DNA of 64,000 nucleotides from Jimgerdemannia flammicorona (lineage: Eukaryota). The stretch is from contig RBNJ01000002.1 of assembly GCA_003990765.1 (NCBI GenBank), positions 1 to 64,000 of the forward strand, given 5' to 3'. Shown here piece by piece: positions 7,043 through 59,650 of this stretch (position 1 is the stretch's first letter; every line of letters starts with the position of its first letter). The position numbers and the translations under genes were made by a program. The notes under the pieces were generated by a model that saw only the letters and a program-made list of their open reading frames with translations, ran no database searches and was not told the origin of the DNA.

Positions 7043-10000
7043 TTATATAGATTTATGGTACTTCTTGAGTCTGTTTCTATATACCATAGTAGGCAGTATA
7101 GTTCTTGAGAGTTTTCTAAGCTAGAAAGTAGTTTCCTTAATATCTTATATATAGATGAGTCCTTTCTATTTGAGCTTCAGTTTTTATAACTATGAGGCTT
7201 CTATCATATTTCAATATAGTAGAACCTTTTCTCTAATTTGAATGGGTTCTAGAGCCTTGTGATTCTTTTCCATATTCTTTCTTTTTAGTGTTTATGACTT
7301 GATAATATAATCTTCTGCCTTATTTCTAATTTGATATAGTCTCTAGATTTCTGAGTCAATCTATCTCCAAGTTAGGTCTAGATTTATAATTGAGGTTCTA
7401 TTGGAATCTTCTTCTGCAAAGAGCAGTTCTCTTAGAGTAAAATATATATTCTATGACTATATATCTCATAGAATAGAGAGAGCAGTTGAGAGGTAGTTAT
7501 CCCAATTGTCATATATATCTGAGATCTTTGCTAGGATATTTTTAAGAGTCTTATTAGTTCTTTCTGTCTATCTAATTTCTTGAGGATAGTATGTAGTGGT
7601 CTTGATATGCTAAATCTTGTATTTCTGATATATTATCTTATAGAATCTATTAATAAATTCTGTGCTATAGTCTGTGGTAATTTGCTTTGGTATCTTATAG
7701 CAACAGATAATTTCTTGGTATAGGAAGTTAGCTATAAAGAGAGTATTGGCTTCTTATAATGCTCCTACTTCTATCTATTTAGTAAAGAGATCTACAATAA
7801 CTATAATATAGTGATTTCTTGATAGTGTTACTGGTAGCAGTCTAATGATATCTATTGTAATATAGTGGAAGGAGATAGGCTCAATTCTTGATAACTTAGA
7901 TGCCTGATCTTACTGATCTTATTTCTATTTTTGACACTTGTCACATTCTTTGACAAATTAGTATAAGTTTTCTTCTATCTTAGGCTACCATATAGTTCTT
8001 CTTATCTTATTATATGTATTGATTCCTTTTAAGTATCCTTGTTTATATACTTTCTTCATTACTTGATACTTCTTATATTCAGGTATTATAAGCTTTTCTC
8101 CTTTTCTAAATATAATATTGTTTAGTTCAAATTATTTCCAAGTCTAGTTGATGATGGTAATAGTCCAGAGTTCAAGATGGTTGGACATCTTCTACTGTCC
8201 AAGATAGCTGATTAATCTATAGTATAGCTCTTTATTCATATTGAATAGTCTTAATGGGAGTATTCTTGAGAGTGTATCAGCATTGGCATTAGTTCTTCCT
8301 GAGTAGTGCTTAATAGTACAGTCATACTCTTGCAGTCTATATATCTATCTGGCATATATTCTTTTAGGGTTCAGAGTGTGGAATAGTCAGATAAGAGTAT
8401 AATGGTCTGTTTAAATAGTAAAGTATTTTCTGGCTAAGTAGTAGTAGAACTTATCTACTGCCCAGACTACTGCTAAGCATTCAAGCTTATATGACTCATA
8501 GTTCTGTTCTGCTCTATAGGTGCCTCAGCTTATATAGAAGATAATATATTCATATCTATCTTTCTTCTAAGCTAGAACTACTCTAAGTTCTATAATACTT
8601 GCATCTGTCTACAAGATGAACTCTAGGTTCTAATCTGGTCTTCTGAGGATGAGTGCTTGGGTCAATCTAGTCTTGAGTTCATTGAAGGTTTTTTTTATAT
8701 TTCTTAGTCTATTTAAATTTAGTCTTCTTCTTCAGTAGCTTGTAGATAGGTGCTATAATATTATAGTATCTTTTGATAAATTATCTATAGTAGGAGGCCA
8801 GTCCAAGGAAGGCATAGACTTCTGTAGTTGTTCTGAGTCTTAAGTAGGCTGCAATAGCCTCAATCTTCATGGGGTCTATGTGAATTCTAGTCTGGTTGAT
8901 GATGTGTCCTAGGTAGATAGTTTCCTGAGCTACAAACTTGTACTTCTTGGACTTGATATAGAGGCCATGCTCCTTGAGCTTCTTGAGAGTCAGCTGTATG
9001 TAGTTAATATGTTTCCATATAGTATTGCTGAAGATAATTACATTATCAATATAGATAAAGAGCTATTTTCTAATTTTATTACTGAAGACTTGGTTTATCA
9101 TTTACTGAAAACTTGTTAGAGTATTATACATTTCAAATAGTATTTACAGATAGACATATGTAGTGTCAGATATGATGAAGGCTGATTTCTCACTGATATC
9201 TTAAGTAAGACTAATTTGATAGAAGTCTGAGAATAGATCCAAGGTGGTATAGTATTTGACTTTACTTCTAAAGATGATAAGAATTTCTTGAATATTTGAC
9301 AAGGACTGTCTATCCTTCTTGATGATTGTATTGAGCTTTTTGTAATAAATACAGAGTCTTAGAACAAACTCTCCAGGCTTACTTCCTTTCTTTGAGGTGA
9401 GGATAATGAGTAAAGCCTAGAAGCTAATAGCTTGCTTAATAATATTGGCTTCTTCTATTTCCTTGAGTTCTGCTCACAGCCATTCTCTATAGACAGGTGA
9501 TATAGGTCTGACTTTCTGATAGATGGGCTTGGTATTGCTGGTGTCAACTTTGTAGTAGTACTTGAGTTCTTGATTATGGATATCTCTAAAGTCTGTAGTG
9601 AGTACTTCTTCATTCTGGTATAGAATCTTGAGAAGTTGTTCTTCTAGGGGAAAGTTTTCTCTAATAGTATCTATATACTTATTCTGGTTCTTATCTTTCT
9701 TGTGCTCAAGTTTGATAATCTTGGTAACAGCATAGGCTTCTCTTTCAGTAGATCCAAAGTCTTATTCTTCTCTCTTAGTCTTGATAAGTTTGATGGCTTC
9801 AGTGATCTTAAACTTCTTGACTTTATAGATCAGCATCTGGCCAATTCTGTCATACTTCTTAACTTTGAATAGAGTGATGAAGTTGTAATTCCTAACTATA
9901 AGAAAGATCTCACCAGTATAATCAAAGTCAATTACTCTCCCTTTGACTGAGATTTTGCTTTTGACCAGACTGCTCTTGATCTTGATAATTCCAGTATAGT

Positions 10001-12280
10001 TCTCTGGCAACTTGACTTTAATTCTAGTACCAAGTAGAGTGGTAGTTTGTGGTTCAAGAATAGTATCTTAGATACTGGTAAGATATATTCCTATAGCTCT
10101 TTCAGTCTTATATTCTGGGATCTTGGCTTCAGGATGAAACTTCTTGATCTTGAGAGTGATGTCTGGTTCTTATTTCTCCTCATCATCACTATCAGCTTAA
10201 AGCTCTGGGAGCTGGTTATCTTTTTTGGCTTTTCTTTTTGCTTCAGCAGCTTCTTGTTCATACTTTTATTGATAGATTTTCCTAACTTCACTGATATAGA
10301 ACCAGTAGTCATTCAGATGTTTAGAGCAGTATATTCTAGTATCATGGGGGTGTCTTCCTCAAGATACATAGCTATTAATGATTTTATTATACCACTGCTC
10401 ATCTATGAGCTTGGTTGTCTTACTCTTATTCTTATATACTAAGTACATAAAGACTTCTGTGTCCTCTTCATCTTCTTTCTCTATGTCTGGTAGTACTTCT
10501 TTATAGACATTGATAGAGATTCCTCTATAGTTGATCTGCATCTTTTGGATATTGAGGTCAATGATAGTCTTGGCCTTGTGAAGCCATTGGTTGCCAATAA
10601 GGATATCATAGTTAGTAATACTTGTAATAATCATATGTATCTACTAAGATGGTAGCTCCTCCTATCTTGATGGAGACTTCTCAGATCTTACCTAAGAGGG
10701 TAGCTTATATACTATCTGCTGTGATATAGATCATTTTGATAGACTCTTCAATGTTCCAGCCTAGGCAGTCAATTGTCTTCTTACTTATAAGGTATTCTCT
10801 AGTACTGGTATCAATGAAGTATCAAAGATATAATCTTCAATCTAATATAGAGTATAGGCTGATGTCTTGTACTGGTCTTCAGATTCTTTATCTGAGTTCT
10901 CAGATTCTTCTTGTATATTGTGAGCTTCTATGATCTTATACTCTTGGTTCTTGATAGTAGTTATAAGTCCTACTATTAACTGCTGTCTGAAGGCAGGGAC
11001 TTTGGCTAGTTGTCTAAAAGTAGCATTGATCTTCTGTTTCTTAAAGTTCTTAGAGATATCATACTGGTGAATCTTGGTCTTGTATAGCTTCTGTTCTTCT
11101 TGCTTTCACTTTCTCTTGAGACTAGAATAGTGCTTTCAATAATTTGGTAGGCAGCTTCATCTAACTCTATGTCTTGATCAATCTCCTCAAGTTGGATCTT
11201 ACTTTAAATAATAATAGTTGGAGTCTTCTTTGGTCTTCTAACTGACTTACTGTTGCTCTTCTTATTATAGAGCTTAGACTGGATTCTAGTACCTTCAGTA
11301 ATAGGGTAGAATTCAGACTCCTCATAGTATTCTTCATCATTAGTATCACCAATCTCCTTGATGACTACTGTATTGGTTTGTTCTCTAGTTCTGATAGTAT
11401 TACTTAGTTGGGCTTTATATTTTGTTTTGATTATGCAACTCTTTACATAGTGGCCTTCTTCTCTATATCTGAAGTATATAACATTGCATTCTTCTATAGT
11501 AATTATAAATCTCTGTACTAGTCTCCTGTTGGTACTTCAGACTTCTTTAACAACATTACTAAGGCATATAGTTATCTTGGTAAACTGCTTGGTAAGTTCC
11601 TCCACTAGATCAGCTTTGGCTATCTTGGGGGTAGGTGGGAATAATTGTCTGTTTACAACTATAGTGAGTATAATACTGATTAGCTTTTATAACTCTATCT
11701 TGATGTCAGTTATTTTCTCTATTAAGTATTCAGCAGGGTATCTAGCAGTCTAATATCTCTATACAAAGATCACTTTCTGGTTAAAGGTCAGAGCAGTTGG
11801 GGTAGACCAGATTGCTAGGGCAATTTTAGAGTAAACTCTTTTAAGGAAGATTAAATCAGCTATTTGTTCCTTGAGAGCATTATTATAGTCAGCCAAGACA
11901 ATCTGGTAGCAGATTCAGATATAGAATAAGTTGGAGTCTTTACTAAGTTCTTGGCAGACAGTGTTGAGTTGATCCTTGAGAGCTTGCTTGATATCTTCAG
12001 TATAGTATATAGTTCTGAGGAAGGTCTTCATATTGGCAAGTTTGGCTGCACCAGCATCAGCAATAGTGGCTATATTGAACTTATCTCTAGTAGGTCCTCT
12101 GAGGCTAACTGGTAGAAGGACCAATTATACATCTACAGCAAGAGCTTGTATGGTAGTGAATTTTTCAAAGTCTTTAATGAAGATCAGAATTAACTCTTCA
12201 GTAATATATCTATAGAATGTAAGAGAATATATTTCTATCTTATCTTGAATTCTTATAGGCGTAACTCTTGTAGTCAGGGT
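7043..12280 (-). pseudogene. gag-pol of copy B: gag, zinc knuckle (~11440-11490), protease (~10560-10850), Cys/His module (~10295-10410), dUTPase (~9750-10150), RT, RNase H, integrase
   Basis: YDILIGNQWLHK; KSSL..GRVIDFDYTGEIFL..DRIGQMLI; domain-by-domain colinear with copy F 53521-58692. Confidence 0.88.
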
Positions 12281-22862: not shown

Positions 22863-24904
22863 TGTAAGAGGGTTGCTTTTTAAGATAACTGTTACATAGT
22901 TCTGGAAAGGTTTTCTGAAAGTTCTAGATATTCTGGAAGACTGTTTTCTTATGGTCAAGATCAATTTCATATAGAGTATGTCCTCTATGCTTATTGATTT
23001 CAAGATTGGGTTGATGTCTCAACCAAAGTCCCTTTTCAGACTAGTTCTGGATGTTCAGGATTTTCCATATTTCAGGAAGTTCAAGAAACTAAGACCAGCT
23101 TAGTTGAATTGGCATACATATTGCTGCAGACAATACCCAATTAGGAATTTTTGTGAGGGGGTTAGGAGTAGAATTTACTTAAGGGTGGTTTGCAGGTTAT
23201 TTGAATGGGTTTATTTGCTATTCATGATATTGCTATACTAGGAGTAGTTGTGTGAAGGGATATTGTAGGGAAGTGTTCAGGAATGTTCTTGTGTATTCGA
23301 GACTGAAATTCTGAGGTCTGGGGGAGGGGGTATTTATACTAGTGAGGGGCTATCTGGACTATGCTGAATATGGATGTAGCACTAAGTGCCTTGCTGAGTC
23401 AGAATGCAGTCATATAGTACAAGTGTGATCTGATATGTCAAGAGATCATCTGACTGCTGAGTCAGTTCACAGTCATATCATATAAGACTAATCTAACTAT
23501 ACTATGACTGCTAGGCTATTTATGGGTTTAGGCACTATCTGGGTAGTCCTTGATGACATCACCATTGATTGCATTATCTCTGATAAAGTAGTAGTCCAGA
23601 AAAAGTGGTTTGCAGATTACTTCTCCTTGTTTGCTAAGGTGATAATATATTGGAAACTTCATCTCCATCCCACAAGATGGCATTGTCTGTCTCATATGCT
23701 GGATAAGATATTGGTGGGCAAAGGAGGGGTGCATCATTTTCACTTTCATTGGATTCACTGTCTGCATACCTTCTATAGGTTACAGCACTATGAGTCATAG
23801 AGTTGTAGTAGGCTAGTGGCTGTGGTTTATGTCACTCGTACTCAGGTGGTGGAGTGGTTGGTTCAATCTCGAGGGTTGTCTGGAGGTACAGGTTGTGTTC
23901 TCTGGTCTCTTCATTGTAGTTGAAGTAATTGGGTGTGAATGTGGGTTGATATTTGTGCCAGTGGTCATTATCTCAATAAGTCTTATATACTGTTATGAAT
24001 TATTGTAAGTTCATCAGCAAGATTGGTGGTATGATCAGGGTTGGTAGAGATCCTTGGCTAGAGGTCATGTCGGTGTCAGAGAGATCATTGTTTTCTGCTT
24101 CATTTTCATCAAAGTGGATTATATCATAGATGTCCTTTATGGTATATCCAACTTGGGGCATTTGCAGGATATGATCACTGGGGTGTGGGAAGGTTCTGCA
24201 ACATACTCAAGGTATTTGTGGTTGAGTTCTTGTATCATGTCATTAATTTGGCCATAGGATAGGGTAGCAACCATTTCGCTGGTGGTAACTTGGAGGCAGG
24301 GAATAATGATACTGTACTTGTAGAAGAGTTCTCGATATTTGCAGGTGATGAGCTTCTGGTGTTGAGACATCTGGGTAATGTCTGTATTATGGTGGTGTTC
24401 AACCATGTCTTCCAGGAGGTGGCTGATCTGGTAATAGCTTGAGATTTGTCTGATTTGGTGGGCCTCACTAAGCATGTTCAGAGCATTTCATCAGGCTTCC
24501 ATGAAGTAGAGGGGTACTAAGCTATGGATATTCATGAGGGGCAGAGGGGGTGTGGCTCAGTTGACAATGGCATTCCAAATGTCAGCATGGATATGGGTAT
24601 AGATCTCAGTGGTCATATTTGTGTATTTGGAAGTTGTAGTTATTGTTTGTTTTGGTTTTCTGATTCGATGCATTTCAGTACTTGGTATATATGTATTTGA
24701 TCCTGATTGGTAAGATTCTGTTTATATAAATCTTGTGTTCTGTGACTTCATATTGACTCAGCTTTGTGCGCTGTGACTTTGGTTTGACTCAGCTTCATGA
24801 TCAAGCAGGTGATTTCCAGATTTGTTCAGAGGTCACATGTGATTTCAGTGGCGTGTTCAGAGGGTGACATGTAATTTCAGTGGCTTGGAGGTTGTGTGCT
24901 TACA
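22863..24904 (-). repeat. 3' LTR of copy D (2042 bp) with U3 ORF remnant ~23528-24617
   Basis: TGTAAG...CTTACA; adjacent PPT; ORF fragments 24137-24475 and 23528-23767. Confidence 0.95.
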
Positions 24905-25119
24905 ACTCTCCCCTTCTTAGCTTTCGACATCCTCATCGGAGTCTTCTAATTTTGTTCAGTAGTATAGGGAGAATAGGCTTACTTTCAGTTTTGCCATTTT
25001 TCCAGAGAGTCAGTATTCTTGTCTTGTTTTGCTGAGTTCTTGGTTTGGTTTGTAATAATTAATATATTCAGGAGGATAATACATATATAGTATATATGGA
25101 TAGGTGTGGAGTATTTGGT

Positions 25120-28100
25120 TCTAGTTGTTCAAGGAATTATATTCCTGAACTAGGTTGGTAGCATTCTGGAGATTGGTCTTGGGTTCCCAGGTTGCATCAT
25201 GGATTGGGTAACCTTTCCATTTGACAAGGTACTCAGGGTGGCTCTTGTTGCCATATTTGTTGAGGATTTGTTCAACTTCGTATTATTCTTGATCATTAAT
25301 AATAACAGGTGCAGGTGGTTTGGTGGTCCAGTTTGGAAATAGCTCATCATTATTCCCATTGTATCACTTGAGATGTTGAACATTAAAGACTGAGTGAATC
25401 TTAATGGTATCTGGTAGCGCCAATTTGTAGGAGGTTGGAGAAACTTATGCAATGACTTCGAATGGTCCAATGAACTTGCTGTTCAGCTTTGTAGATGGTC
25501 TGTACTTGAGGTTATCAACTCAGTATCCTCTGATGTCTAGTAGAACTTTTTCTCCAATATTAAAGGTTTCTTCTCGGCAGTGTTGGTTAATATACTGTGA
25601 CTGTTGTTCTTGAGCTCATAATAAATTCTCAATAGCAATCTGGCTTAGATTGCACATTCGGAGTAAGAATTCTTCAACAGCTTCAACTGTAGAGGATTCC
25701 TCAGTGGTTCAGATAAGTGTCAAAGGGGTGTTTGGGTTTTGTCCAGTATTGGCGAAGAATGGGGTTATTCTGAGAGAGGCTTGCTTACTATTGTTATAGG
25801 CAAACTCAACTGCGGTGAGGTATTCATGCCAGTCATCTTGTCTGTAGGAAACATAGTTCCTTAGCATTTGTTCCAGAGTTTGGTTCATTCTTTTAGTTTG
25901 GCCATCAGTTTCTGGGTAAAAGGCTGTGGATAGTGCAAGTTTTGTTCCAAGGTGTACATGGAGGGCTTTCCAAAAATGGCTGGTGAATTTCAGGTCTCAG
26001 TCACTAACAATGATCTTGGGAAGACCATAATAGTGGAAGATATTATCAAACAAGAGTATGGCTATGTCTGGTGCTGTTACAGTAGTGGTAGTAAGCATGA
26101 AGTAGGCTTGTTTGCTGAGATAGTCCACAAAGACAATAATTGCATCTTTTCCATTCTTAGTTCAGAGTAGTTGTACAATAAAGTCTATAGAGATTTGTTT
26201 CCAATTAGCAGATGGTACTGAGATAGGGTGAAGTAAGCCAGGTTTTGCTAGTGTTGAGGACTTGTTTCATTGACTGGCATCATAGGAAGTGATGTAGGTT
26301 TTGAGCTGATCTGCCATATGGGGCCAATAGAAGTTTTCGGAGATAACTTTATAACATTTGTCAAATCCTAAATGTCCAGCTATAGGGGCATTATGACATT
26401 CAAATAGGATAGTCCTTCGGAGGTCTCGGTTGTTTGGGACATACAGTCTGTCCTTGTAGTAGATAGTATTGTCCTTCAGTTGGTATTGATGATACTGTGT
26501 ATGCTTGTCTGCATCATCACTATTCAGGATTTCTCACAGTGCTTGAGCTTCCTTATCATCAGTACATGCTGTGATAATTTGTTCTATGATAGAGTTTGTA
26601 ACCAAGGTGAGAGTTTGGATAACCTCTTCGATTGGTGGTCTGGAGATTGCATTGGCAATAATATTTTTCTTGCCAGGGTGGTACTGGATTTCATAGTCAA
26701 AGTTGGTGAGGACTTTCATTCATCTGGCTTGCTTTCAAGAAAGGGTAGCCTGTATCTTGATGTTGACTAATAACTTGTGGTCAATCAATACAGTAAAGTG
26801 TGCTCCTTTTAGATAGGGTTGCCATTTGATCAGAGTGTCCACAATGGCTAGCATCTCCTTCTCATGAGTTGTATAGTTTATTTTGGCATCATTGAACTTA
26901 CAGGAGTGATAGGCCACAGGGTGTCCTTCTTGCATAAGTACTGCCCAAGGGCTAGGTTAGAGGCATCAGTGGTAACTTTATATGGCAGTATAGGGTTTGC
27001 CGCTTGTAGTACTGGAGTGGTTATCAGGGCATCCTTTAGTGCTTGAAAGGCAGTATCTTGCTCAGGTCCCCAAGTTACAAGATTGTTGAAGTCTTTTTCT
27101 TGTTTTATGGTCCAGGGTTATTCTTGTTTCTTGCTGTGCTTGGTCATTTGGGTGAGGGCAGTAGTGATTTTAGCAAAGTTGGTAACAAATCACCTGTAAT
27201 AGTTTGCTAATCCCAGGAATGACTGGAGGTCTTTCAGCTTCTTGGGTCTGGACCAATCCTAGATTGTAGAGATTTTGCTAGGGTCTACTTTAATTCCATT
27301 TGGAGTGACAATGTGTCCAAGGAATTGAATTTCTTTCAGGAGAAATTTGCACTTGCTGATTTTTGCAAAGAGTCAGTTTTCTTGGAGTTTCAGTAGTACT
27401 AGTTCAAGGTGTTCAAAATGTTCCTCTAGGGTTTTGCTGAAGACTAGGATGTCATCAATGTAGACAACAATAAATTTGTCTAGGTATGGATGCAGAATGG
27501 TATTCATCAGTGTCTGGAAGGTTGCTGGAGCATTAGTTAAGCCAAAGGGCATAACCAGGAACTCAAAGTGTCTATAGCGAGTTCAGAAAGCTATCTTGTA
27601 GATGTCTTCTTCTTTCATAGCAATTTGCCAGTAACTATTTCACAGGTCGAAGGAGCTCATGAATTGCAGGTTGGTAAGTCTATTGAATATTTCATTGATC
27701 CTCAGTAGTGGGCAACAGTTCTTGATGGTCTGTTCATTGAGATCATGGTAGTCAATACACATTCGCAGGTCTCCTCCTTTTTTAACAACAAAGAGAACTG
27801 GTGTGCCATAGGGTGATACACTGGATCTGATGAATCCTTGCTCTAGGAGTTCATCAATTTCTTTCTTGAGTGCATCAATTTCTCTTGGAGACATGTGGTA
27901 GATTGACTTGAAGGCTGGTTTGGCATCTGGGATAGTCTTGATGGCATGGTCTACTACTCATTTAGAAGGTAGGCCTTTCAGGAGTTTCTTTGAGAATATG
28001 TCTCGAAATTTCTGGAGTAGTGGTCTGACATGGCTGTCAACTTTGGAAAAGTCTTCTTCAGAGTTCTCAGGTTCTCCTTTGGATAGACAGATGGAGATGG

Positions 28101-28570
28101 CAAAGAGAGGGCATTTCTTGGCCAATTTCTTGAGTTGTAGCTTATTGATGTGGGTGATCTTTGGTCCAGGATCACCAGAATTAAGTGGATCCTTTTCACC
28201 TTACAGTTTGAAGTTGTGGTGTCCTTTCTTGATGGTCAGAGAATGGTTTACCCAGTCGATCATAGGGTTCTCTTATTTTAACCATGGAGTTCCAAGGATG
28301 ATTTCATTGTCAGGAAGTGGTATGATTTGGAGGGTAACATGTACTTAGTAGTCACCAATTCGGAGGGGTAGATTGTGGACTTCTTTGCTAATAACATGTG
28401 AGGTTCCATCAGCTGTAGCAACTGCTTGAGTTTGCTGTACTGGAGAGATAAAGACCTTGAGTCTGTTGGCTGTCTCTTCATTGATGAAGTTACCTGAGGC
28501 ACCACTGTCTATCATAATCTTGACAGATGCTCGGTTGACAAAAGCCTTAAGTGTGAGCAGTTTGTCTGAT
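25120..28570 (-). pseudogene. pol: pol of copy D: protease, RT, RNase H, integrase, chromodomain
   Basis: [77 protein letters not shown]. Confidence 0.95.
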
Positions 28571-28637
28571 CCAATGGTGGTGATTTCAGTTGTAGGAGCT
28601 TTCCTTCTGTTGGTTCTTCTTTGAGCCAGTTCATTAA

Positions 28638-28755
28638 CACAAGAGAAGTAATCATCAATTATTTGGGAAGAGTACATTCCAATGCCATGGGGATATCAGC
28701 CACCTGGTACATATCCATCTTTGATTTTCTTGTAGAATTGTTCTTCTTTGTTCAT
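28638..28755 (-). other. Cys/His module between dUTPase and protease (unknown function)
   Basis: EEQFYKKIKDGYVPGG*YPHGIGMYSSQIIDDYFSC (DNCFSC in copy E); homologous to 55329-55445. Confidence 0.75.
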
Positions 28756-28777
28756 GGTAGGTTGGGCTGGGGCCTTG

Positions 28778-29190
28778 TTTGATGAGCTAAATCTTTTGGA
28801 TCCTTGGATGGTGGGCAGTAGTTCAGGAACTTCCTTGACTATCAGGGTTGACTTGATTTTTTCAAATAGGATCTGGGTGATGCAGAAACCAATAGGGATC
28901 TTGAAGGGTGTCCAACTGTAGTTTCAGATGAGGACAATAATTTCATCTATATAATCCTCATCAATGACTCCTCTTTCTACTGAGAGTCTTTTCAATGCTA
29001 GGCTGCTGTGACAGTATATTCTTCCAACATGTCCTTCAGGGATATGGATGCTGATTCCTGTGTAGACTTGTTTGACTTCTCAGTTGGAGACTATAGCTTC
29101 TTTGGCTGCATACAGGTCATATCCAGCTACTTTCTGACTTCCTTTGGTTGGGGCCTGAGCAGTTTGTTTTAACTTGACAAAGTCTAGTAT
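28778..29190 (-). pseudogene. dut: trimeric-type dUTPase domain between Gag zinc knuckle and protease
   Basis: AGYDLYA, HSSLA, GVIDEDYIDEIIV, ITQILF, QGSKRFSSS, i.e. degenerate dUTPase motifs 1-5. Confidence 0.9.
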
Positions 29191-29199
29191 TCTGGTGAT

Positions 29200-31215
29200 C
29201 AGGTTGTTGAGGTGGTGTAGAGTGGTAACAGTTGCTCATATTGCTATTTGGGGTTTTCGGTTAGGGTAGGCACTGGTCATGTGTCCTATCTTTCAGCAAT
29301 AGAAGCATGCTCCGCTTCTTCAAAGTTCATTCCTTTCGCCTTCAGTAAGTTTCTTGAAGGGACTTGGCTGGGTGGGTTCATGATTTCTGGGTGTCCAAGA
29401 GGTGGATGTGGAGGGAGCTCAAGATGCTTTATGCTTGGGTTCTTCTTTCTTGGTCCAAGTCTTTTCCTTGTTGTTAAATTGCCTTCAGGGCAGAATTGGT
29501 CCAGCTGTTAGGATTCGCTTGATCATGGTCTTGATTCTTGCCAGACACCATTGTTGGTGATCACAACTAACTGAGCAGCCTTGTTCTCAGATTTTTCTAG
29601 TAAGCCATTCAGGCAGGGCATCAAATAAATGGTCTGCTCTTGTACCATTTCGTGCTTCATCATTGGTAATGTATCCTAGGCCAACAGTGTTCAGGAGTGA
29701 CTCGAGTTTTGTACAGAAGGTTTCAAATTCTTTCTTGCCATATACATCAAATTTGAGGTTGTGGAGTTTTACTCAAGATTTGGTAATCATGGTTTTGCTG
29801 CAGTATTGAGCAATCATAAGTTTTTTGAGTCCAGGGGCTGCAGGATGGGCTCCATATCCTGGGGCATTGTTTGCTACATTCTGAGCAACTACTGCAGGTT
29901 GGGTATCCCATGTGAGGGCTTTTTCAGAAAGAGTTCACCACCATTCTTCGGCAGATCCTCGGAAGAATGTAACAACTCAGTGGACATAGGCTGTAGTGGT
30001 GGCAAAGAGTTGTTCCAGTGTGTGGTCTTGATTGTTTGTCAGAACATGGTTAGCAACTCACTCATTAGTCTATTGATTGGCTTCAAAGTTGGTGTCAACT
30101 ATACTAATGAAGCTTTGGACTTCTTGTGCAGTACCATTAAAGGTAGGTAGGCTCAGATTTTTCATAGGTTGGGTCTGTTCAGCTAAGGCAGTAATGGTTG
30201 CTACCATTATAGCTACTTGGGCTGTGAGATCAAGAATCTGTTGGTTCGCCATATTATTTACTGGAGGCAGTTGGACTGCTGGTAGTAGTGTTACTGGTAC
30301 TACTTGAGGTACTGGTGCAGAGTATAATGGGGTTCTTTGGGTCTGGGTAAGTTGCTAGAGTAGTAGTTGTGGATCTGAAGTAAGGGCTTGATAGATAGCT
30401 GTTTGTTGTTGTGTAGGTGTATTCTGTCCTAATGGGAGTGTGTCTCCTTCAGTAGTGTATCTGGGATTGAATTCAGTAAGATACTTCTCCTCCTCTTCAG
30501 TTTGGTCCCTGTATAATTGGGTTTGCTCGGTGTCGAAGTAGACAGAATCAGTTGTATATCTGATTTCAGAGGGACTTAATTCAAGGTCAAGTTCAGGTTC
30601 AGTGTTGGTTTTGGATTCAGGTAGGGCTGTAGCAGGGCCTGCTTCAGGTTTCAGGGTCAGGTAGTTGATGAAGAGTTTCTCTCACTTCTTCTTTAAGAAT
30701 ATGGTGGGCCTTGCTGTTCTGGAATCGGTAGTATAATGTAGTCTTGGTCCTGGTATGGTGAAAGTCAGTAGAGTTGAGCCACTTGGCTATAGAGGCTTGG
30801 GCTTCCTGAGGAACTAAGGCTAGAAAGACTACTGCTGGTTGTCCTAGATCACTCGGATTTATAGAGCTGACAAAACTCTTGTTGAGAAGAGTAAAGAAGG
30901 CTTCAATAAGACCTTCTTCATCTTGACTTACTGGGTGTAGTGCAAGGAGTTCAGTGAATAGGGTTTCATCTATTTGCTGGTTTAACTGGAGTACTTCTTT
31001 CTTTGAATGAAGTTTATCCCACTTGTTGCAGGTGTGGAGGTCAAATTGTCCTTATACATTAGGTTCAATTCTCTCCAGATTGTCAGATAGTTCAGGATAA
31101 ATTCCAGTTCAGAGGTTGGGCTTTATACCAACTTATAGAAATTCTCAGAAGGGTTTGTAGTGGGGTGAGGAAGCATCTTGAAGTGGAATTGGATTGTAAA
31201 CCACTGCTACCAAGT
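29200..31215 (-). pseudogene. gag: gag of copy D with long N-terminal extension and CCHC zinc knuckle (~29260-29310)
   Basis: LSLPTFNGTAQEVQSFI; FFRGSAEEWW; GACFYC*KIGHMTSAYP; frame continues ~320 codons upstream of MANQQ (30252). Confidence 0.85.
31201..31212 (-). promoter_or_regulatory. primer binding site, compatible with initiator tRNA-Met
   Basis: TGGTAGCAGTGG 3 nt after the LTR; TGGTAGC matches the 3' end of initiator tRNA-Met (host tRNA not available to confirm). Confidence 0.7.
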
Positions 31216-33262
31216 TATAAGAGGGTTGCTTTTTAAGATAACTATTACATAGTTTTGGAAAGGTTTTCTGGAAGTTCTGGATATTCTGGAAGACTGTTTT
31301 CTTATGGTCAAGATCAATTTCATATGGAGTATATCCTCTATGCTTATTGATTTCAAGATCAAGTTGATGTCTCAACCAAAGTCCCTTTTTGGACTAGTTC
31401 TGGATGTTCAGGATTTTCTGTATTTCAGGAAGTTCAAGAAACTAAGACCAGCTTAGTTGAATTGGTGTATTGCTGTAGACAATACCCAATTAGGAATTTT
31501 CATGAGGGGGTTAGAAGTAGGATTTACTTAAGGGTGGTTTGCAGGTTATTTGAATGGGTTTATTCACTATTCATGATATTGCTATACTAGGAGTAGTTGT
31601 GTGAAGGGATATTGTGGGGAAGTGTTCAGAAATGTTCTTGTGTGTTCGAGACTGAGATTCTGAGGTCTGGGGGAGGGGGTATTTATACTAGTGAGGGGCT
31701 ATCTGGACTATGCTGAATATGGATGTAGCACTAAGTGCCTTGCTGAGTCGGAATGCAGTTACATAGTACAAGTGTGATCTGACATATCAAGAGATTGTCT
31801 GACTGCTGAGTCAGTTCACAGTCACATCATACAAGGCTAATCTAACTATACTATGACTGCTAGGCTATTTATGGATTTAGGCACTATCTGGGTAGTTCTC
31901 GATGACATCACCATTGATTGCATCATCTCTGATGAAGTAGTTATCCAGAAAAAGTGGTTCACAGATTACTTCTCCTTGTTCACTGAGGTAATAATATATT
32001 GGAACTTTGTCTCTGTCCTACAAGATGGTCTCATCTGTCTCATATGCTGGATAAGGTATTGGTGGGCAAAGGAGGGGTGCATCATTTTCACTTTCATCAG
32101 ATTCGCTGTCTGCATATCTTCTGTAGGTTACAGCACTATGAGTCACAAGGTTGTAGTAGGCTGGTGGCTATGGTTCATGTCACTCATACTCAGGTGGTGA
32201 AGTGGTTGGTTCAATCTTGAGGGTTGTCTGGAGGTACAGGTTGTGTTCTCTGGTCTCTTCATTATAGTTGAAGTAATCAGGGGTGAATGCAGGTTGGTAT
32301 TTGTACCAGTGGTCATTGTCCCAATAAGTCTCATATGCTGTTATGAATTGTTATAAGTTCATTAGCAAGGTTGGCAGTATGATCAGGGTTGGCAGAGATC
32401 CTTGGCTAGAGGTCATATCAGTATTGGAGGGATCATTGTCTTCTGCTTCATTTTTATCGAAGTGGATTATATTGTAGATGTCCTTTATGGTGTATCCAAC
32501 TTGGGGCATTTGCAGGATATGATCATTGGGGTATGGAAAGGTTCTGTCTGTAGTTTCAATGTACTCAAGATATTTGTAGTTAAGTTCTTGTATCATATCA
32601 TCAATTTGGCCATAGGACAGGGTAGCAACCATTTTGCTAGTAGTAACTCAGAGGCAGGGAATAATGGTACTGTACTCGTAGAAGAGTTCTCGATGTTTGT
32701 GGGCGATGAGCTTCTGGTGTTGAGACATCTGGGTAATGTCTGTATCATGGTGGTGTTCAACCATATCTTCCAGGAGGCAGCTGATCTGGTAATAGCTTGA
32801 GATTTGTCTGATTTAGTGGGCCTTGCTAAGCATGTTCAGAGCATTCCATTGGACTTCCACGAAGTAGAGGGGTGCTAAGCTATGGATATTCATGAGGGGC
32901 AGGGGGGGTGTGGCTCGGTTGACAATGGCATTCCAAATGTCAGTGCAGATACGGGTATAGATCTCAGTGGTCATGTTTGTATGTTTAGAAGTTGTAGTTG
33001 TTGTTTGTTTTGGTTTTCTGATTCGATACATTTCGGTGCTCAGTATATATGCATTTGATCCTGATTGGTAAGATTCCATTTGTGTAAATCTTGTGTTCTG
33101 TGACTTCATATTGACTCAGCTTTGTGCACTGTGACTTCAGTTTGACTCAGCTTTGTGATCAAGCAGGTGATTTCCAGATTTGTTCAGAGGTTGCATGTGA
33201 TTTCAGTGGCTTGTTCAGAGGGTGACATGTAATTTCAGTGGCTTGGAGATTGTGCACTTATA
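31216..33262 (-). repeat. 5' LTR of copy D (2047 bp)
   Basis: Direct repeat of 22863-24904; both termini mutated TG>TA/CA>TA; TATA-like box near 31680. Confidence 0.95.
31877..32974 (-). pseudogene. U3-encoded accessory ORF, 366 codons in one frame (extendable to 33109), few internal stops
   Basis: ORF-track pieces 32813-33109 and 32351-32632 share a frame that runs on to DYPDSA*; several stops are sense codons in other LTR copies. Confidence 0.75.
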
Positions 33263-36385: not shown

Positions 36386-38039
36386 CTGACAAAATATAAC
36401 TCTATATCTATATTACTATTAAGAAAGACTGTCTTTATATCTATTTGATAAATTTTTAGATTATATAATATATTGAATATTAGAGAAAATATCTTATTAT
36501 AGTCAATACCAAAATCTTATAAATAATTCTTATTAATAAAATATACTTTGAATTATTTTATACTTCTATTACTCTTATATTTAATCTTATAGATCTAATA
36601 AGATTCAATAGTCCGTTGATTGGCCAGAAGAAGTACCAGATCTTATATATCATTCTTGATAAGTAAATTATACTCTTTATCTATAGCTTATTTCTATTTC
36701 TTATTATCAGAAGAGGTTGTCACTTATCATATATACTTGACTTATTAAAAGTTATAATAAATACACATTTATATACTTCAGCATAGCTCATATAATCCTT
36801 ATATTACTATTAAAAACTTGCTGATATATCTCAATAACTTTTTAATTTAGAATATATCTCTTTTTTTTTTTATAGTTACTTAGACTTTGATATTTATTAT
36901 TAAACCCTTCTATAATACAGTAGCCCCACCTCTAACCAATCTCTCTTAAGAGATTACTCTCTACTCCTTTATGATTAAAGACTACTAGACAATCTCTTTA
37001 GTAACTTGTTTTGTGATCTTATATGTGGTTTCTAAATTAGTTCTAAGAGTAACATGTGATTTTGGTAGCTTGGAGATTATATACTTATAACTCTCTCCTT
37101 CTTAGCTTTTGACATCCTTATTGAGATCTTCTAATTTGATCTAGTGTTGTTATACTATTTGGATGGTTCTTGTGGCTATATTTGTTGAGAATTTGTTCAA
37201 CTTTTTATTCTTTCTGATTATTAATAATAACAGATATAGGTGGTTTTGCAGTTTGGTTCATGGAATTTCTAGAGTAAGGGTCTGATACAGCTGTCAACTT
37301 TGGAAAAGCCTTCTTCAAGATTTTCAGATTCTTCTTTGGATGGGTGAATGGAGATAGCAAAGAGAGGGTATTTCTTGGTCAGTTTCTTAAGTTGTAGCTT
37401 ATTGATATAGGTAATATTTGTTCCAGAGTTGCTAGAACTGAGTGGGTCTTTTTTATCTTATAGTTTAAAATTGTAGCATCTCTTTTTGATAGTCAGGAAA
37501 TGGTTTACCTAATTGATCATAGGGTTCTCTTATTTTAACCATGGGGTCCCAAGGATGATTTCATTATTAGAAAGTAGTATGATCTAGAGAGTAACATATA
37601 CTTGATAGTCACTAATTCAGAAGGGTAGGTTGTAGATTTCCTTACTAATGATATGAAAGATTCCATTAGCTATAATAACTACTTGAGTCTATTATATCAA
37701 AGAGATCAGGACCTTGAGTCTGTTGGCTATTTCTTTATTGATGAAGTTGCCTGAGGCACTACTGTCTATCATAATCTTGACAGGTGCTCAGTTGACAAAA
37801 GCTTAAAGTGTAAGCAGTTTATCTAATTAAATAGTAGTAATTTTAGTTATAGGAGTTTTTCTTCTATTGGTTCTTCTTTGGACCAGTTCATTGATACAAG
37901 AGAAGCAATTATCAATCATTTAAGAAGAGTACATTCCAACACTATGGGGGTATTGGCCACTTGGTATAAATCCATCTTTAATTTTCTTATAGAATTATTC
38001 TTTCTTACTTATGATAGGTTAGACTGGGACCTTGTTTGA

Positions 38040-38450
38040 TGAGCCAAATTCTCTGAATCCTCAGATAGTAGGCAGTAGTTCAGGGACTTCCTTGACTGTC
38101 AGAGTTGATTCAATTTTCTCAAATAGGATCTAGATAATACAAAAACCAATAGGGATCTTAAATGGTATCCAACTATAGTTTCAGATAAGGACAATGATTT
38201 TGCCTATATAATCTTCATCAATGATTTCTCCTTCTATTGAGAGTCCTTTCAATGCTAGGCTACTGTGACAGCATATTCTTCTAATATATCCTTTAGGAAT
38301 TTGAATACTAATTTCTATATAGACTTGCTTAACTTCTTGATTGGAAACTGTAACTTCTTTGGCTATATAGAGATCATATCTAGCCACTTTTTGACTTTCT
38401 TTAGTTGGGGCCTTAGCAGTTGGCCTTAACTTAACAAAGTCTAGTATTTT
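38040..38450 (-). pseudogene. dut: dUTPase domain of copy E
   Basis: ARYDLYIAKE..CHSSLALKGLSIEGEIIDEDYIGKIIVLI. Confidence 0.85.
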
Positions 38451-51430: not shown

Positions 51431-52951
51431 TACTCTATCAAGCAGGTCACTATTCTAGTCAAAGGCTGAACTCTGATACCTACTGAAATTGCAGTCTAAT
51501 GTTCTAAAGAATATTATATCAGAATTATACCATATCAGGACTCAAGTATTAGTACAATCTATATATATATCAATGAGGCTATCAGAGCCAAGAATTACAG
51601 AAATTATGGATAAGGATAATAATAAGGATACCTCTTCAAAAGATAAGAAAAAAAATAAATCTAGACTATAAAATAAAGTTAAAGCAAATTTAGGAGGATA
51701 TTGAGATCTGTCTAAGATATCTCATTATAACCATAAATATTATATAAATTATACTAGTACTTATAAGTATACTTATATTATAATAACTAATAAAAAGAAG
51801 TAGAAAAAGACTATAGATGAGAAATACAATTTACTTATCAAGAATGACATCTGAGATCTAGTCTCTCTCTTAGTAGATAGATAAACTATAGGATTAAAAT
51901 AGATCTATAAGATCAAATATAAAGCTAATAGAATAATAGAGTAGTATAAAGCTTAATTTGTAATAAAAGAGTATTTACAAGAATATAGTATAGACTATAA
52001 TAAAACCTTTTCTCTAGTATTCAAGCTTACTTTACTTAGATAGAGCTAAATATGACTATGAAATCCACCAAATAGATATTAAGATAGTATTTCTAAATAG
52101 AGATATAGATACCAAACTATATATATTATTTATAGAGATACAAACTATATAATAATAAACAAAAGAGCTCATATGTAAATTATATAAAGGTCTTTATGAT
52201 ATCAAATAAACAGTAAGACTATAGAATTAAAAAATCAATAAATACCTCTTAGATAATAAATTTAAGTATTGTAAAGCTGATTCATATATATATCTGGCAT
52301 ATATCCTCAGAAATAGTATTAGATAATATCATTCTAGTTAGAATAATGAGTGAAATCAATAATATAAAAACAATACTATAATAGAAATTTAAGATGATAA
52401 ATATGAGTAATATATTCTCTCTTCTTAGAATATTAATTATATATAATAGATATGAATATACTATATATCTATTATAAGCTATATATATTTGAACTATACT
52501 TGAACAATTTAGTATAAGTAAATACAAATCTGTTGGAATACCAATAGAGATATCTATAAGACTAAAGAAGTCCAGTGATACTATATTCAAAAATAACAAT
52601 ATCCTCTATTAGCAAGTTATATAATCTCTCATATATCTTATGCTTGAGATGAGACCTGATATATCATATATAGAATAAAGTAGTATAGTACTTATCTTAC
52701 TATAATAATATCTATTAGATTACAATTAAGTATATTTTTAGATATATCAAAGATATAGTATACTATATACTATATTTAAGTAGTAATAGATCAAATAAGA
52801 GTGCTATAAGACTAACTAGTATATATGATATAGATTGGGTTAAAGATCTTAATGATTAGTACTTTATAATTAAATAACTCTTCCAAATTAGTAAAAATAA
52901 AACTATTTTATAGTAAATATATAAGCAATCTTAAGTAGTAATATTATCTAT

Positions 52952-53418
52952 TATGATGGTATAGCCAGATTCAGAAGAAGGAAATAGAGAATAGATACTT
53001 GATCACACCTAGTCTCAAAGTAGTATAGCTGTATAGTTAATAGTCCTCGATTTTGCAACTTGCTAAATATTTTGCAAAGTGCAAGATTGAGCTCCCCGAT
53101 ATAGTATAGCATTTCGCAACTGGCAAAACATTTTGCAAAGTATTAAATGACTCATAACTTAGCCATGTAATCTAGTAACCATCTCATAGCTAGCAAACTT
53201 GTATAAATAACCCAGTATCTTTGAGTGAATAAACCTCAGATCAAAATAGTTCAAAGCAAAGAGATAGCAAAGGAACTAGTAAGCCTGTGGGCAGATATAC
53301 TTTGAACTCACCCACCCTCCCCTGCAATTTCAAGAGACTCTGCAAGAGTCAGAACAGTCAAGTCTTCAAGATACAGAAATCTGACATACTTTCAAGAGTA
53401 AGCATCTGCTATGTTATA
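52952..53418 (+). repeat. 5' LTR of copy F
   Basis: Direct repeat of 59184-59650; TATA-like TATAAATA ~53202. Confidence 0.95.
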
Positions 53419-55328
53419 ACTTGGTGCCCATTGGCTGGTGATTCAAGATGAATCCCTCACTTTCAAGCTAAACAATGAACAACTGTCACTACCCAAACCA
53501 AGCCCCAATACCCAGACAAGATGGATATGAGACCACCAGTATTCCACGGATATACCTCAGATGAATCGATCATCACCTTCATTGACGATTTCGAGCAGTA
53601 TGCTGCTGTAAGGACCCTGACAGCAGCACAGCAAGTAGCCCTCATGCCCTTCAGCCTATGAGGCTCTGCCAGAGCAGCATTCACAGCTGCAACCTATGCA
53701 GGAAATGATGCTGATACTATACTGATAGCACAGAAGACCTGGCTCTGAAATACATATTACACAGATGAGATCAAGCAAGCCCTGAAGGATCAGCTCAATA
53801 CAATATGCCAAGGAATGAGCAAGGATCCAAACACATTCTATACCAGAATTCGATATCAAATAATCTTTGCAGATTATGCTGCTGCTATCCAAGATCAAGT
53901 AGCCGAAGCAACCTTCATGAAAGGAGTCCATCCAGAAATAGCCATAGCCATCCACTTATCACCAGTAATTCTGGATCTGCCACAGAAGGTCACCTATGCT
54001 CAGTGATACTGGATAGCCAGACATCCACAAGACCATACAATGGAAAGGATCACAGAAGTCAGAATCAAGGCACCCAAGGCAACCAGTATGATCCCTACTA
54101 TAATGATCAATCGAAACACACCTCAGCCAAAAGCTACAGAGCAGCAAAAGAACAGTGAGCCTATGGAGGAACTCACCAAAAGGTTTGCCAAAATGACTGT
54201 CCACCTGGGAGACATGGTAAAGGAAATTTGAGGAAGAGACTGTCGCCCTGTTCAGAAGTTCGCTGCCACCTCAGACAAGAAGAAAGGTACCTGCTATACT
54301 TGTGGAGAAGAAGGCCACTACTCCTATGAATGCATGAGTGAAACCAAGCACAAGGCTCAACCAAGCAATGCTACATGAAACAAGGAGCAGGCTAATATAA
54401 TTACCTTTAAGGAGATTGGAGATTCTGACAAAGAAGAATGAGAGGCCTATCCTGCTCAGACCACTAAGAAGGATGCTCGCAAAGAGCCCTACAAGAGACC
54501 ACCAGGAAGATCCAAGAAGAACTCAGTAGAAAAGCAGATGGAAACTGCCATGGAAAGCCAAGCCAAAGAGATGGACCAAGATACAGAGCTGGAGCAAGCA
54601 GTTCAAGATATCATCTGAGGAACTACTCCAGTCAGTGAAGGAGAAAAAGAAAAGAAGCTGTGCAAGACCAAGACCTTCAAGTATGATATCTTCAAGGATC
54701 TCAGTCAACAAAAGGTCAATGCAACCTTTGGGCAGCTTGCAGAAATCCCAACATTCAGACAGCAAATGAGATTTGGACTTGCCAAAACAACCAAGAAACA
54801 AAGATAGAAGATAACCAAGGCCAATAACATTCAAGAGGACTCAGGAGAAGAAAGTGAGGACAATCACAAAACCTCTGCATATGCAACATGCCAAATCGAA
54901 GATAGAATCTTCGAGGCCATCATTGATATGGGAGCAGGAGGATGTCTCCTCAGCAAGAAGGCAGCAGACTGCCTAGGTTGGGATGTAGAGGAAGCAACTA
55001 AGCTGGTGTTCGTCACAGCTGATGGCACAAGAGCTATATCTCTAGGAAAGATTCAAGACATTCCCATCAAGATTGGAGGAGCAACCATCCCAGTAGATGT
55101 AATCATAATCAATGCCACCAACTATGATATCCTCATTGGCAATCAATGGCTTCACAAAGCCAAGACAGTAATTGATCTCAATGCCCAGAAGATGCAGATC
55201 ATCTACTGGGGACAGAAGATATGAATTCCCATCAATGTCAACAAAGGAGTTCTTCCTGATATGGAGGAAGAAGAGAGTGAGCAAGAGGAAGCTTATATGG
55301 TGACTACTCCAAAGAAGAAGTCGGATAG

Positions 55329-55445
55329 ATGAGTGAAGAAGAATGGTGCAAGAAGATGGCAGAAGGCTATGTACCACAAGGAGTCTGTCCTCATGGGATT
55401 AAGATGTACTGCATGGAGCATGTCAATGATTGCTACCAGTGCACC
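55329..55445 (+). other. Cys/His module between protease and dUTPase (unknown function)
   Basis: EEEWCKKMAEGYVPQGVCPHGIKMYCMEHVNDCYQC. Confidence 0.8.
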
Positions 55446-55571
55446 ATTGGAATCAAGAAGATCCACCAGGAAAAAAGGCAGAAAGCTCTCGAAAAACAGA
55501 TCAGAAAAGAAGAGAAGGAGGAAGATGACGAACCACCAGCTTTCCTGGAGGACAGTGATGATGAAGAAGAA

Positions 55572-55988
55572 ATCAAGGTCAAGATTCAAAAGATCCACCC
55601 TGATGTAGTCTTGCCAGAATACAAGTCAGAAAATGCAGCCAGAATGGACATCGCTACAGTAGAAGAGACTGTACTAGAACCCCAGACAACTACTCTACTT
55701 GTAACTGGACTGGAGATGATCATCCCAAAGGATCATATCAGGATTCTCAAGACAAGAAGCAGTCTAGCTAGAAGCAAAATTACAATTGAAGGAGGAGTCA
55801 TCGATTCAGACTATACTGGAGAAATTCTACTCATTGCTAGGAATCACAATCCTACAATCCCATTTCCAGTCAAGAAGAAGAACTGATTGACGCAAATGTT
55901 GATCTTCCCGATCCTATAACCAAAGATCATAGAAGTTAAAAAGCTAGAGGAAACAAGAAGAGGAAAGAAAAGATTTGGATCCATAGGA
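55572..55988 (+). pseudogene. dut: dUTPase domain between protease and RT
   Basis: AARMDI, KTRSSLA, GGVIDSDYTGEI, LTQMLI, RGKKRFGSIG (motifs 1-5). Confidence 0.93.
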
Positions 55989-58705: not shown

Positions 58706-59146
58706 ATGATGGTACTCAAGATCACTAGTGCCACCCAAAGGGCTATTGAGAGACAATGGTGCACCACCGAGCCCCTGACTATAGAGGAGTCTTATGACAG
58801 TATCCAAAGCATCATGCAGATTCATCTCTCTTGGATCTCACACTTCAAGGTCTATTAGCATCAGAATGAATTCTAAGAGTACTTCAAACTTGGCCAAGTA
58901 CTCAACTAAGACCCAGAAATGACTAAAGAAAATTGGATTGCAGAATGCCAGCTCTCCTATTCCCAGATCACTATTGCTAAGAGAATCCACAAGCTATTCC
59001 GAGAGGATGAATCAGCACTAGCCTACCTGTGAGGAGTGACTCCCTCAGACTTTGACCGAGTCAGGCGACATCATTGGGAAACAGTAATGCAACAAATCAT
59101 GCAATACAAGACCATACAGACCATTAAAGCTTGGGAGTTTAAATAG
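58706..59146 (+). pseudogene. ORF3 of copy F (147 codons, 4 internal stops), accessory protein
   Basis: MMVLKITS..EYFKLGQVL..ITIAKRIHKLFREDESALAYL*GVTPSDF..WEFK*; begins 13 nt after the integrase stop. Confidence 0.7.
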
Positions 59147-59183
59147 ATGCTTTAGGGACAAGATCATCTATTTAGGAGGAAGT

Positions 59184-59650
59184 TGTGATGGTATAGCCAG
59201 ATTCGGAAGAAGGAAATAGGGAATAGATACTTGATCACACTCAGTCCCAAAGTAGTATAGCTGCATAGTTAACAGTTCTCAATTTTGCAACTTGCTAAAT
59301 ATTTTGCAAAGTGCAAAATCGAGCTCTCTGATATAGTATAGTATTTCGCAACTAGCGAAACATTTCGCAAAGTGTTAAATGACTCATAACTTAGCCACGC
59401 AACCCAGTAACCATCTCATAGCTAGCAAACTTGTATAAATAACCCAGTATCTTCAAGTGAATAAACCTCAGATCAAAATAGTTCAAAGCAAAGAGATAGC
59501 AAAGGAACTAGTAAGCCTGTGGGCAGATACACTTTGAACTCACCCACCCTCCCCTGCAATTTCAAGAGACTCTGCAAGAGTCAGAACAGTCAAGTCTTCA
59601 AGATACAGAAATCTGACATACTTTCAAGAGTAAGCATCTACTACATTACA
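59184..59650 (+). repeat. 3' LTR of copy F
   Basis: TGTGAT...ATTACA, preceded by PPT, followed by TSD CTAT. Confidence 0.95.

Follow-up and report, generated by a model that had tools for sequence, protein, structure and literature searches.

Four decayed Ty3/Gypsy chromoviruses in the window, by which we mean the whole 64,000-nt stretch of DNA analysed here, each hold a copy of a small Cys/His module next to dUTPase. Two copies are in the order dUTPase-module-protease (family 1) and two are in the mirrored order protease-module-dUTPase (families 2 and 2b). Wherever proteins are long enough to show both enzymes, the module sits between dUTPase and protease in either order. Within the reach of the data, only dUTPase-bearing elements carry it, and it matches no family or solved structure in the libraries searched (Pfam, PDB and BFVD). 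Our tentative reading, which we hold to be a real possibility somewhat short of probable, is that the module is a genuine, independently folding Gag-Pol domain of ~45-60 residues in one dUTPase-encoding chromovirus group, where it would be a putative zinc-stabilised handle kept on dUTPase.

Module copies and their host elements

The window has a G+C content of 35% and consists mostly of decayed Ty3/Gypsy elements. A Pfam scan of all 147 stop-to-stop frames of at least 70 codons located pieces of protease, dUTPase, RT, RNase H, integrase and chromodomain, and direct-repeat families delimited four elements with LTR pairs. Family 1 element A (22873..32856, minus strand) was outlined by repeat families D1, D2, D4, D5 and D6 with a spacing of ~8349, and carries RT, RNase H and integrase domains; its LTRs, at 22873-24498 and 31226-32856, are each at least ~1.6 kb. 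Family 1 element B was placed by direct repeats at about 33.8-41.1 kb, also on the minus strand. The family 2 element occupies 52951..59482 on the plus strand and contains protease, dUTPase, RT, RNase H and integrase; its terminal repeats begin at 52951 and 59183 (repeat family D3, spacing 6232, 92% identity). The family 2b element, on the minus strand, has LTR starts at 5317 and 12580. RVT_1, RT_RNaseH, Integrase_H2C2 and rve follow one another in this order in both family 1 and family 2, LTR pairs are present, and a chromodomain was found at 2127-2366 in an incomplete family 1 copy. Together these features place the host elements among the Ty3/Gypsy chromoviruses.

The motif is present at all four sites named in the first-pass annotation, and the Pfam domain positions agree with the mirrored order described there. 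In family 1 copy A, the module occupies 28621..28752 on the minus strand (44 codons), with one in-frame TGA and Tyr at two Cys positions. Its motif, at 28746-28639 on the minus strand (28638-28755 in the earlier annotation), reads EEQFYKKIKDGYVPGG*YPHGIGMYSSQIIDDYFSC. The dUTPase lies upstream in the same frame at 28780..29160 (minus strand, PF00692, E 2.9e-26), and an aspartyl protease with a DSGA motif lies downstream at 28351..28569 (minus strand, gag-asp_proteas E 5.1e-8, RVP_2 E 5.9e-4). A read-through translation of 28348-29220, with X at stops, has dUTPase at residues 21-147, the module at 157-200 and the aspartyl protease at 218-290. Copy B shows the same order on the minus strand, with dUTPase at 38037..38417 (PF00692, E 6.4e-21), the module at 37878..38009 (motif 38003-37896, two stops, E 8e-26 to copy A) and a protease remnant (DSSA) at 37659..37796. 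The remnant was read from the translation, and its gag-asp_proteas match (E 3.5e-4) is below the cut-off.

In family 2, on the plus strand, the aspartyl protease at 54844..55203 (RVP_2 E 6.8e-11, residues 13-132 of ORF 54808-55221) lies upstream of an intact module at 55329..55460, in which C20, H22, C35 and C38 are all present. The motif, at 55335-55442, reads EEEWCKKMAEGYVPQGVCPHGIKMYCMEHVNDCYQC. The dUTPase follows at 55611..55982 (plus strand, PF00692, E 2.9e-13), a tblastn match taking it on to 55982. Within ORF 55329-55883 the module forms residues 1-44 and dUTPase residues 95-174, with an acidic linker between them. The family 2b module (10278..10415, minus strand, motif 10409-10269) is a decayed copy that contains one stop and has lost Cys at several positions. 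A single frame carries the protease tail, the module and dUTPase in this element. The C-terminal part of the protease and an acidic linker, at 10416..10640 (minus strand), lie upstream of the module and match the protease tail of a database relative, P0018; this short piece has no Pfam match. The dUTPase at 9771..10130 (minus strand, PF00692, E 5.5e-17) is downstream of the module in the same frame. In a tblastn comparison within the window, the family 1 and family 2 modules are 38% identical over 58 columns (E 1.3e-9).

In family 2, protease and module are read in frames offset by one base (window 55309-55332). The break falls in an AAG run near 55312-55320, and an in-frame TAG stands just ahead of the first codon of the module. 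We considered a programmed frameshift at this site and rejected it. The equivalent region is continuous in the relatives P0003 and P0020 and in family 2b, and the frame break therefore represents damage in one copy.

Relatives of the module in protein databases

A first profile (A2), made from the four window copies with X at stops, was scored against 1,835,955,588 representative proteins and gave 13 matches at E<=1e-3. Eleven are real, with E values of 2.8e-18 to 6.8e-5 and the whole module covered. The other two, P0008 and P0011, were dropped as repeat proteins whose many matching stretches cover no more than 13-16 profile positions and which do not have the Cys/His pattern. Because 11 real relatives were found in a set of this size, with E values reaching 2.8e-18, the similarity of the modules is beyond chance. 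An alignment of the real matches (A3) was then compared with a set of 5.8 billion proteins in a search aimed at longer proteins. It gave 17 matches at E<=0.01, eight of them new, and the union of both searches comprises 19 relatives. Two of these are close to window copies: P0019 and family 1 copy A share 90% identity along 537 colinear residues, and P0018 is 72% identical to family 2b over 10634-9105. A word-indexed search of longer proteins, in which the query was the part of the family 2 ORF that carries the module, gave no candidate, which is weak evidence, and the same kind of search with the dUTPase region of P0018 returned the query itself alone.

The first-pass annotation described the module as travelling with dUTPase. 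In keeping with that description, Pfam detects dUTPase (PF00692) in all four window copies and in 14 of the 19 relatives, and none of the other five relatives is long enough to prove that dUTPase is absent. Three of the five are simply too short (P0009, 82 residues; P0010, 63 residues; P0020, 107 residues, which stops inside the module). P0007 (157 residues) has neither dUTPase nor protease in the 56 residues before or the 57 residues after the module. P0021 (140 residues, E 8.3e-5) contains the C-terminal half of the module only, with nothing recognisable in the 95 residues upstream. P0007 and P0021 share 33% identity and may be fragments, or may represent a different setting for the module. 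Neither profile search yielded a demonstrable dUTPase-less element with the module.

Both domain orders are also found outside the window. In eleven relatives dUTPase is followed by the module (P0001, P0002, P0004, P0005, P0006, P0012, P0014, P0015, P0016, P0017 and P0019). All four of these that are long enough have protease after the module, identified by Pfam in P0006 and P0019 and by a DSG motif, read at truncated protein ends, in P0002 and P0015. A CCHC knuckle is located upstream of dUTPase in P0002, P0005 (residues 242-258) and P0015. The order protease-module-dUTPase is seen in P0013 and P0018. P0003 has the module followed by dUTPase, with the protein starting just past the protease, and P0020 has a protease tail followed by the module.

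The segments joining the three domains differ in length. When dUTPase comes first, the gap between it and the module ranges from about 7-8 residues after the dUTPase GFGST motif (P0012, P0004) up to ~35 residues. The linkers between module and protease are ~20-35 residues. In the protease-module-dUTPase order, ~45-90 residues separate the module from dUTPase, and this linker is strongly acidic and contains D and E runs (window 55461-55610; P0018 residues about 130-165; P0013 residues about 185-270). The protease-to-module linker of this order is acidic as well.

Conserved residues and decay of family 1

Family 2 and 16 relatives were combined in a 17-row alignment (A4), from which P0010, P0016 and P0020 were left out. 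The consensus pattern is (E/D)E-x-(W/F)-Y-x2-(I/L)-x2-G-Y-x-P-x-G-(R/K)-C-P-H-G-I-x-M-Y-x6-(D/E)-C-x2-C, followed by a mildly basic helix. C20 and C38 are present in all 17 rows, with no exception. H22 (Y in P0006), C35 (Y in P0003) and P21 (L in P0012) are each present in 16 of the 17. The C, H, C, C set that was earlier taken to bind zinc is therefore conserved. It does not include the middle Cys of family 2 (C28), which is Cys in only 9 of 17 rows, with Ser in seven and Ala in one. In the rows left out, P0016 has Gly at C35, P0010 has Tyr at both H22 and C38, and P0020 ends within the module. Other well-kept positions include W/F6, Y7 and I/L10 in the first helix, as well as G13, Y14, P16, G18, M26 and Y27. 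Across the two domain orders the module is 42-62% identical, compared with 38-51% for dUTPase and 36-37% for RT in the same proteins. The net charge of the module core ranges from -5 to +3, that is, neutral to slightly acidic, and the helix after it is mildly basic.

Three oddities of family 1, namely the stop, the Tyr before PHG and a Y/C polymorphism, are not traits of the family, as R, C and C stand at these positions in P0019, which is intact (GRCPHG...DDCFSC in the module; wider stretch DRYVPSGRCPHGIGMYSSRMIDDCFSC). Compared with P0019, copy A (window 27385-28995, minus strand) has 8 stops and no frameshift. A single unambiguous base change accounts for 44 of the amino-acid differences, and 41 of these are G>A or C>T; five further differences are ambiguous and three require two or more changes. 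The G>A/C>T class includes the stop ahead of YPHG, the Tyr that stands for the first Cys, and the Y/C position. Judged from this comparison, the odd residues of family 1 are the product of G>A/C>T decay. The changes in copy A, together with the 35% G+C of the window, look like cytosine deamination or RIP-like repeat decay. P0010 resembles a P0001-like sequence that has decayed in a similar way.

Predicted fold

Structure prediction yielded a confident small fold. AlphaFold2 was run on 60 residues of the family 2 module (55329-55508) with the 17-row alignment, and gave a mean pLDDT of 93.7 and a pTM of 0.73, with all five models at 91 or above. The predicted elements are a helix (3-11), a β-hairpin (18-19/25-26), a second helix (29-34) and a long helix (36-59). 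C20-P-H22-G lies in the predicted hairpin, and C35 and C38 are at the start of the predicted long helix. In treble-clef zinc fingers, two ligands come from a zinc knuckle on a β-hairpin and two from the first turn of a helix. The predicted secondary structure of the module fits such a layout, and the module may be treble-clef-like. One zinc would then be held by C20 and H22 in the CPHG turn of the hairpin and by C35 and C38 where the long helix begins.

A model of P0002 (320 residues) shows the same pattern in the module with a pLDDT of 82-86, while the dUTPase core scores 80-93. The flanking segments of the module (residues 186-208 and 271-320) score below 50, suggesting that the module is autonomous and held on flexible tethers. 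A prediction of the complex of the P0002 dUTPase trimer with one module and Zn gave a score of 0.00 and a mark of 0.34, values that carry no verdict since the run had no controls and the fold of the partner is uncertain.

Comparison with known domains

The first-pass annotation did not recognise the module as a standard domain of Gypsy elements, and no Pfam family reached its cut-off when 11 modules were scanned at E<=10. The best match, zf-C5HC2, scored 16.8 bits against a cut-off of 22 and occurred in 1 of the 11 modules; DUF1451 matched three, with a best E value of 0.047. Sequence searches of the PDB with a single sequence and with a profile returned nothing below E 1, and neither did a Foldseek comparison of the module model with the PDB and BFVD. 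Among ESM Atlas look-alikes of P0007 and of the module part of P0018, none had a score of 0.9 or more. Literature searches found no published description of the module.

Three known parts of retroelement polyproteins were considered as identities for the module and rejected. The nucleocapsid zf-CCHC knuckle (PF00098) has no match among the 11 modules at E<=10; its C-x2-C-x4-H-x4-C spacing spans ~14-18 residues, and the module has C-x-H-x12-C-x2-C over ~45. The HHCC domain of integrase (PF17921/PF09337) likewise has no Pfam match in the module, and hhalign against the HHCC domains of the window returned a probability of 0.1%. The motif V arm or a C-terminal extension of dUTPase was the third candidate. 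The dUTPase matches stop at profile position 128/129, before the module; a low-confidence linker separates the two, and the module is N-terminal to dUTPase in the protease-module-dUTPase order.

Possible functions of the module

The proposed handle on dUTPase is modelled on the nucleocapsid-dUTPase fusion of betaretroviruses. In either order, gag-dUT-module-PR-RT or gag-PR-module-dUT-RT, predicted flexible linkers would join the module to both enzymes. After protease processing, by analogy with the betaretroviral protein, the module would remain joined to dUTPase and could hold it on nucleic acid or on partner proteins inside the reverse-transcribing particle. The conservation of the module, its confident predicted fold and its co-occurrence with dUTPase are in favour of a handle on dUTPase, and so are the linker lengths, the shortest dUTPase-module linker being ~7-8 residues and the protease linkers ~20-35. 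The neutral to slightly acidic core speaks against a handle that binds nucleic acid. With this core and a helix that is only mildly basic, the module is expected to be a weaker nucleic-acid binder than a nucleocapsid-like domain. P0007 and P0021, which have no dUTPase or protease nearby, are also difficult to accommodate, as are the single rows that break a ligand (P0006 and P0003).

Adjacency alone cannot choose the partner of the module, because it adjoins protease as constantly as it adjoins dUTPase. It may therefore serve the protease, as a zinc-stabilised appendage that aids retropepsin dimerisation or times its activation, which we consider unlikely. The N- and C-termini of the retropepsin monomer lie together at the dimer interface. 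A module on either end of retropepsin would thus occupy the same place, and both domain orders would work. All four window copies of the module adjoin protease, and so does the module of each relative whose length allows a judgement: it is upstream of the DSG motif in P0002, P0006, P0015 and P0019 and downstream of the protease in P0013, P0018 and P0020. However, Gypsy polyproteins with protease and without dUTPase far outnumber those with dUTPase, and neither profile search produced a demonstrable element with protease and module that lacks dUTPase. The protease linkers (~20-35 residues) are also longer than the shortest dUTPase linkers.

The co-occurrence with dUTPase may reflect shared ancestry within one clade. 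The module could then have no specific partner: one dUTPase-bearing clade would have inherited it as a folded spacer or as a stretch that carries cleavage sites, and the association would be phylogenetic. Its narrow distribution, with 11 real representatives among 1.84e9 proteins, is consistent with such an inheritance, and so are the similar degrees to which RT, dUTPase and module diverge between the two orders and a dUTPase tree compatible with one split between them. However, the module is at least as conserved as the enzymes and its Cys/His set is near-invariant. It also stayed between the two enzymes in a rearrangement that cannot be produced by moving one domain. On balance we doubt that the module is such a spacer.

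A more specific proposal is that the module represents a zinc finger with an undescribed fold, which would either link dUTPase physically with the reverse-transcription complex or tune the flexible C-terminal arm of the enzyme; we regard this as rather improbable. We give virtually no credence to the possibility that the similarity is a chance or compositional artefact of Cys-rich, low-complexity sequence in decayed repeats: 2 of the 13 first-profile matches were repeat proteins (P0008, P0011) and the weak sub-threshold Pfam zinc-finger matches reflect Cys content, but the eleven full-length matches with E 2.8e-18 to 6.8e-5 among 1.84e9 proteins, the colinear conserved positions over 17 rows and the confident fold prediction are all against it.

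Origin of the two domain orders

By simple reasoning, the order dUTPase-module-protease cannot be turned into protease-module-dUTPase by a single move of one domain, or by a tandem duplication followed by a deletion. Moving dUTPase alone would give module-protease-dUTPase, and moving the protease alone would give protease-dUTPase-module. In a dUTPase tree of 13 rows with no outgroup, the 10 sequences from the dUTPase-module-protease order and the 3 from the mirrored order are parted by a single branch whose support is weak (72/40). In the module tree, built from 17 rows and 47 columns, the two orders are intermixed without supported conflict. Forcing the four modules of the protease-module-dUTPase order together costs 12.8 log-likelihood units (AU p 0.075), and a single origin of this order is neither supported nor rejected. 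One origin of each order is possible on these trees, and neither tree lends support to the shuffling between lineages that the first-pass annotation proposed.

Relation to other retroelement zinc domains

Accessory zinc domains of retroelement polyproteins are already known as a class, to which the module, as predicted from its sequence and model, would add a member. The closest parallel is in betaretroviruses, whose dUTPase (MMTV p30, M-PMV NC-dUTPase) is described in the available part of one source as a mature nucleocapsid-dUTPase fusion encoded beside protease (PMC4531489). In both cases a retroelement dUTPase has a Cys/His domain beside protease, and in the betaretroviral case the excerpted text has the two joined covalently in the mature protein (PMC4531489). 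The CCHC knuckle just upstream of dUTPase in P0002, P0005 and P0015 also recalls the betaretroviral fusion. The betaretroviral zinc domain is the Gag nucleocapsid, which has CX2CX4HX4C knuckles, is N-terminal to dUTPase only and is joined to it by a frameshift. In contrast, the module is a 45-residue C-x-H-x12-C-x2-C unit with predicted helices, occurs on either side of dUTPase and is unrelated to zf-CCHC in sequence.

In Juno LTR retrotransposons of bdelloid rotifers, dUTPase is located between protease and RT and is followed by an extra Zn knuckle, as stated in the available extracts of their description (PMC5408684). On that account Juno is also a Gypsy-like element with a zinc motif beside dUTPase (PMC5408684), although it belongs to another element lineage in a host of another kingdom. 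Neither profile search returned a rotifer-like protein among the module matches, and homology with the Juno knuckle is therefore not indicated.

In fungal chromoviruses, the available passages of a further source report that the position of dUTPase varies, being at the Pol N-terminus, between protease and RT, or at the Pol C-terminus (PMC2864245). PosPlaTy3 of Postia placenta, elements of Phanerochaete chrysosporium and Tmt1 of Tuber are, like the elements studied here, chromodomain Gypsy elements with dUTPase (PMC2864245, in those passages). The passages, which allow a comparison by description only, mention no Cys/His module in these elements (PMC2864245). The giant, Ty3-rich genome of Entomophthora muscae is reported, in the part of the preprint available, to be enriched in dUTPase and retroviral protease domains (bioRxiv 10.1101/2023.09.13.557621).

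The elements that carry the module have another small helical zinc domain in Pol that ends in C-x2-C, the HHCC domain of integrase (Integrase_H2C2/zf-H2C2). The HHCC domain follows the pattern H-x(3-7)-H ... C-x2-C, and the module differs from it in the order and spacing of the ligands.

Accessory domains of retroelement polyproteins reveal needs of reverse transcription beyond the core enzymes. Should the module indeed be a zinc finger that couples dUTPase to reverse transcription or tunes its arm, the union of a zinc domain with dUTPase would have arisen in retroelements three times or more, as seen in the betaretroviral NC-dUTPase, the Juno knuckle and the module. Such recurrence would suggest that the enzyme has to be tethered in order to function at the site of cDNA synthesis. 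In that case, the mirrored order would mean that the partner site can be reached from either end through flexible linkers. A role of the module as a zinc-dependent tether or regulator would help to explain the frequent fusion of retroelement dUTPase to a Cys/His domain, and would provide a new annotation marker for this chromovirus group. The mirrored order is also a natural experiment on the importance of domain order in polyproteins. The value of these results is chiefly for specialists in transposons and retroviruses.

Other features of the window

The two longest open frames outside the recognised elements, 47286-47918 (plus strand, 211 codons) and 61384-62085 (plus strand, 234 codons), have no significant Pfam family; the latter has a weak DUF2301 match only (E 0.0021, below the cut-off). 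A third family 1 copy at 1-2366 (plus strand) is interrupted by the window start. It retains RNase H at 379-753, an integrase zinc domain at 1155-1490 and the chromodomain at 2127-2366, and residues 503-524 of P0019 match window 1-66 in this copy at 95%. The family 1 LTRs are unusually long (at least ~1.6 kb). Open frames of 80-116 codons recur in them, for instance at 24137-24487 and 32351-32647, and match no Pfam family.

The Gag of elements with dUTPase first (type 1) has a small conserved Cys/His feature of its own. Near residue 160 of both P0015 and P0005 it reads C-P-H-x3-W-C, and the window copy, at about 29503-29739 (minus strand), has C-D-H-x3-W-C. The feature loosely recalls the CPH turn of the module.
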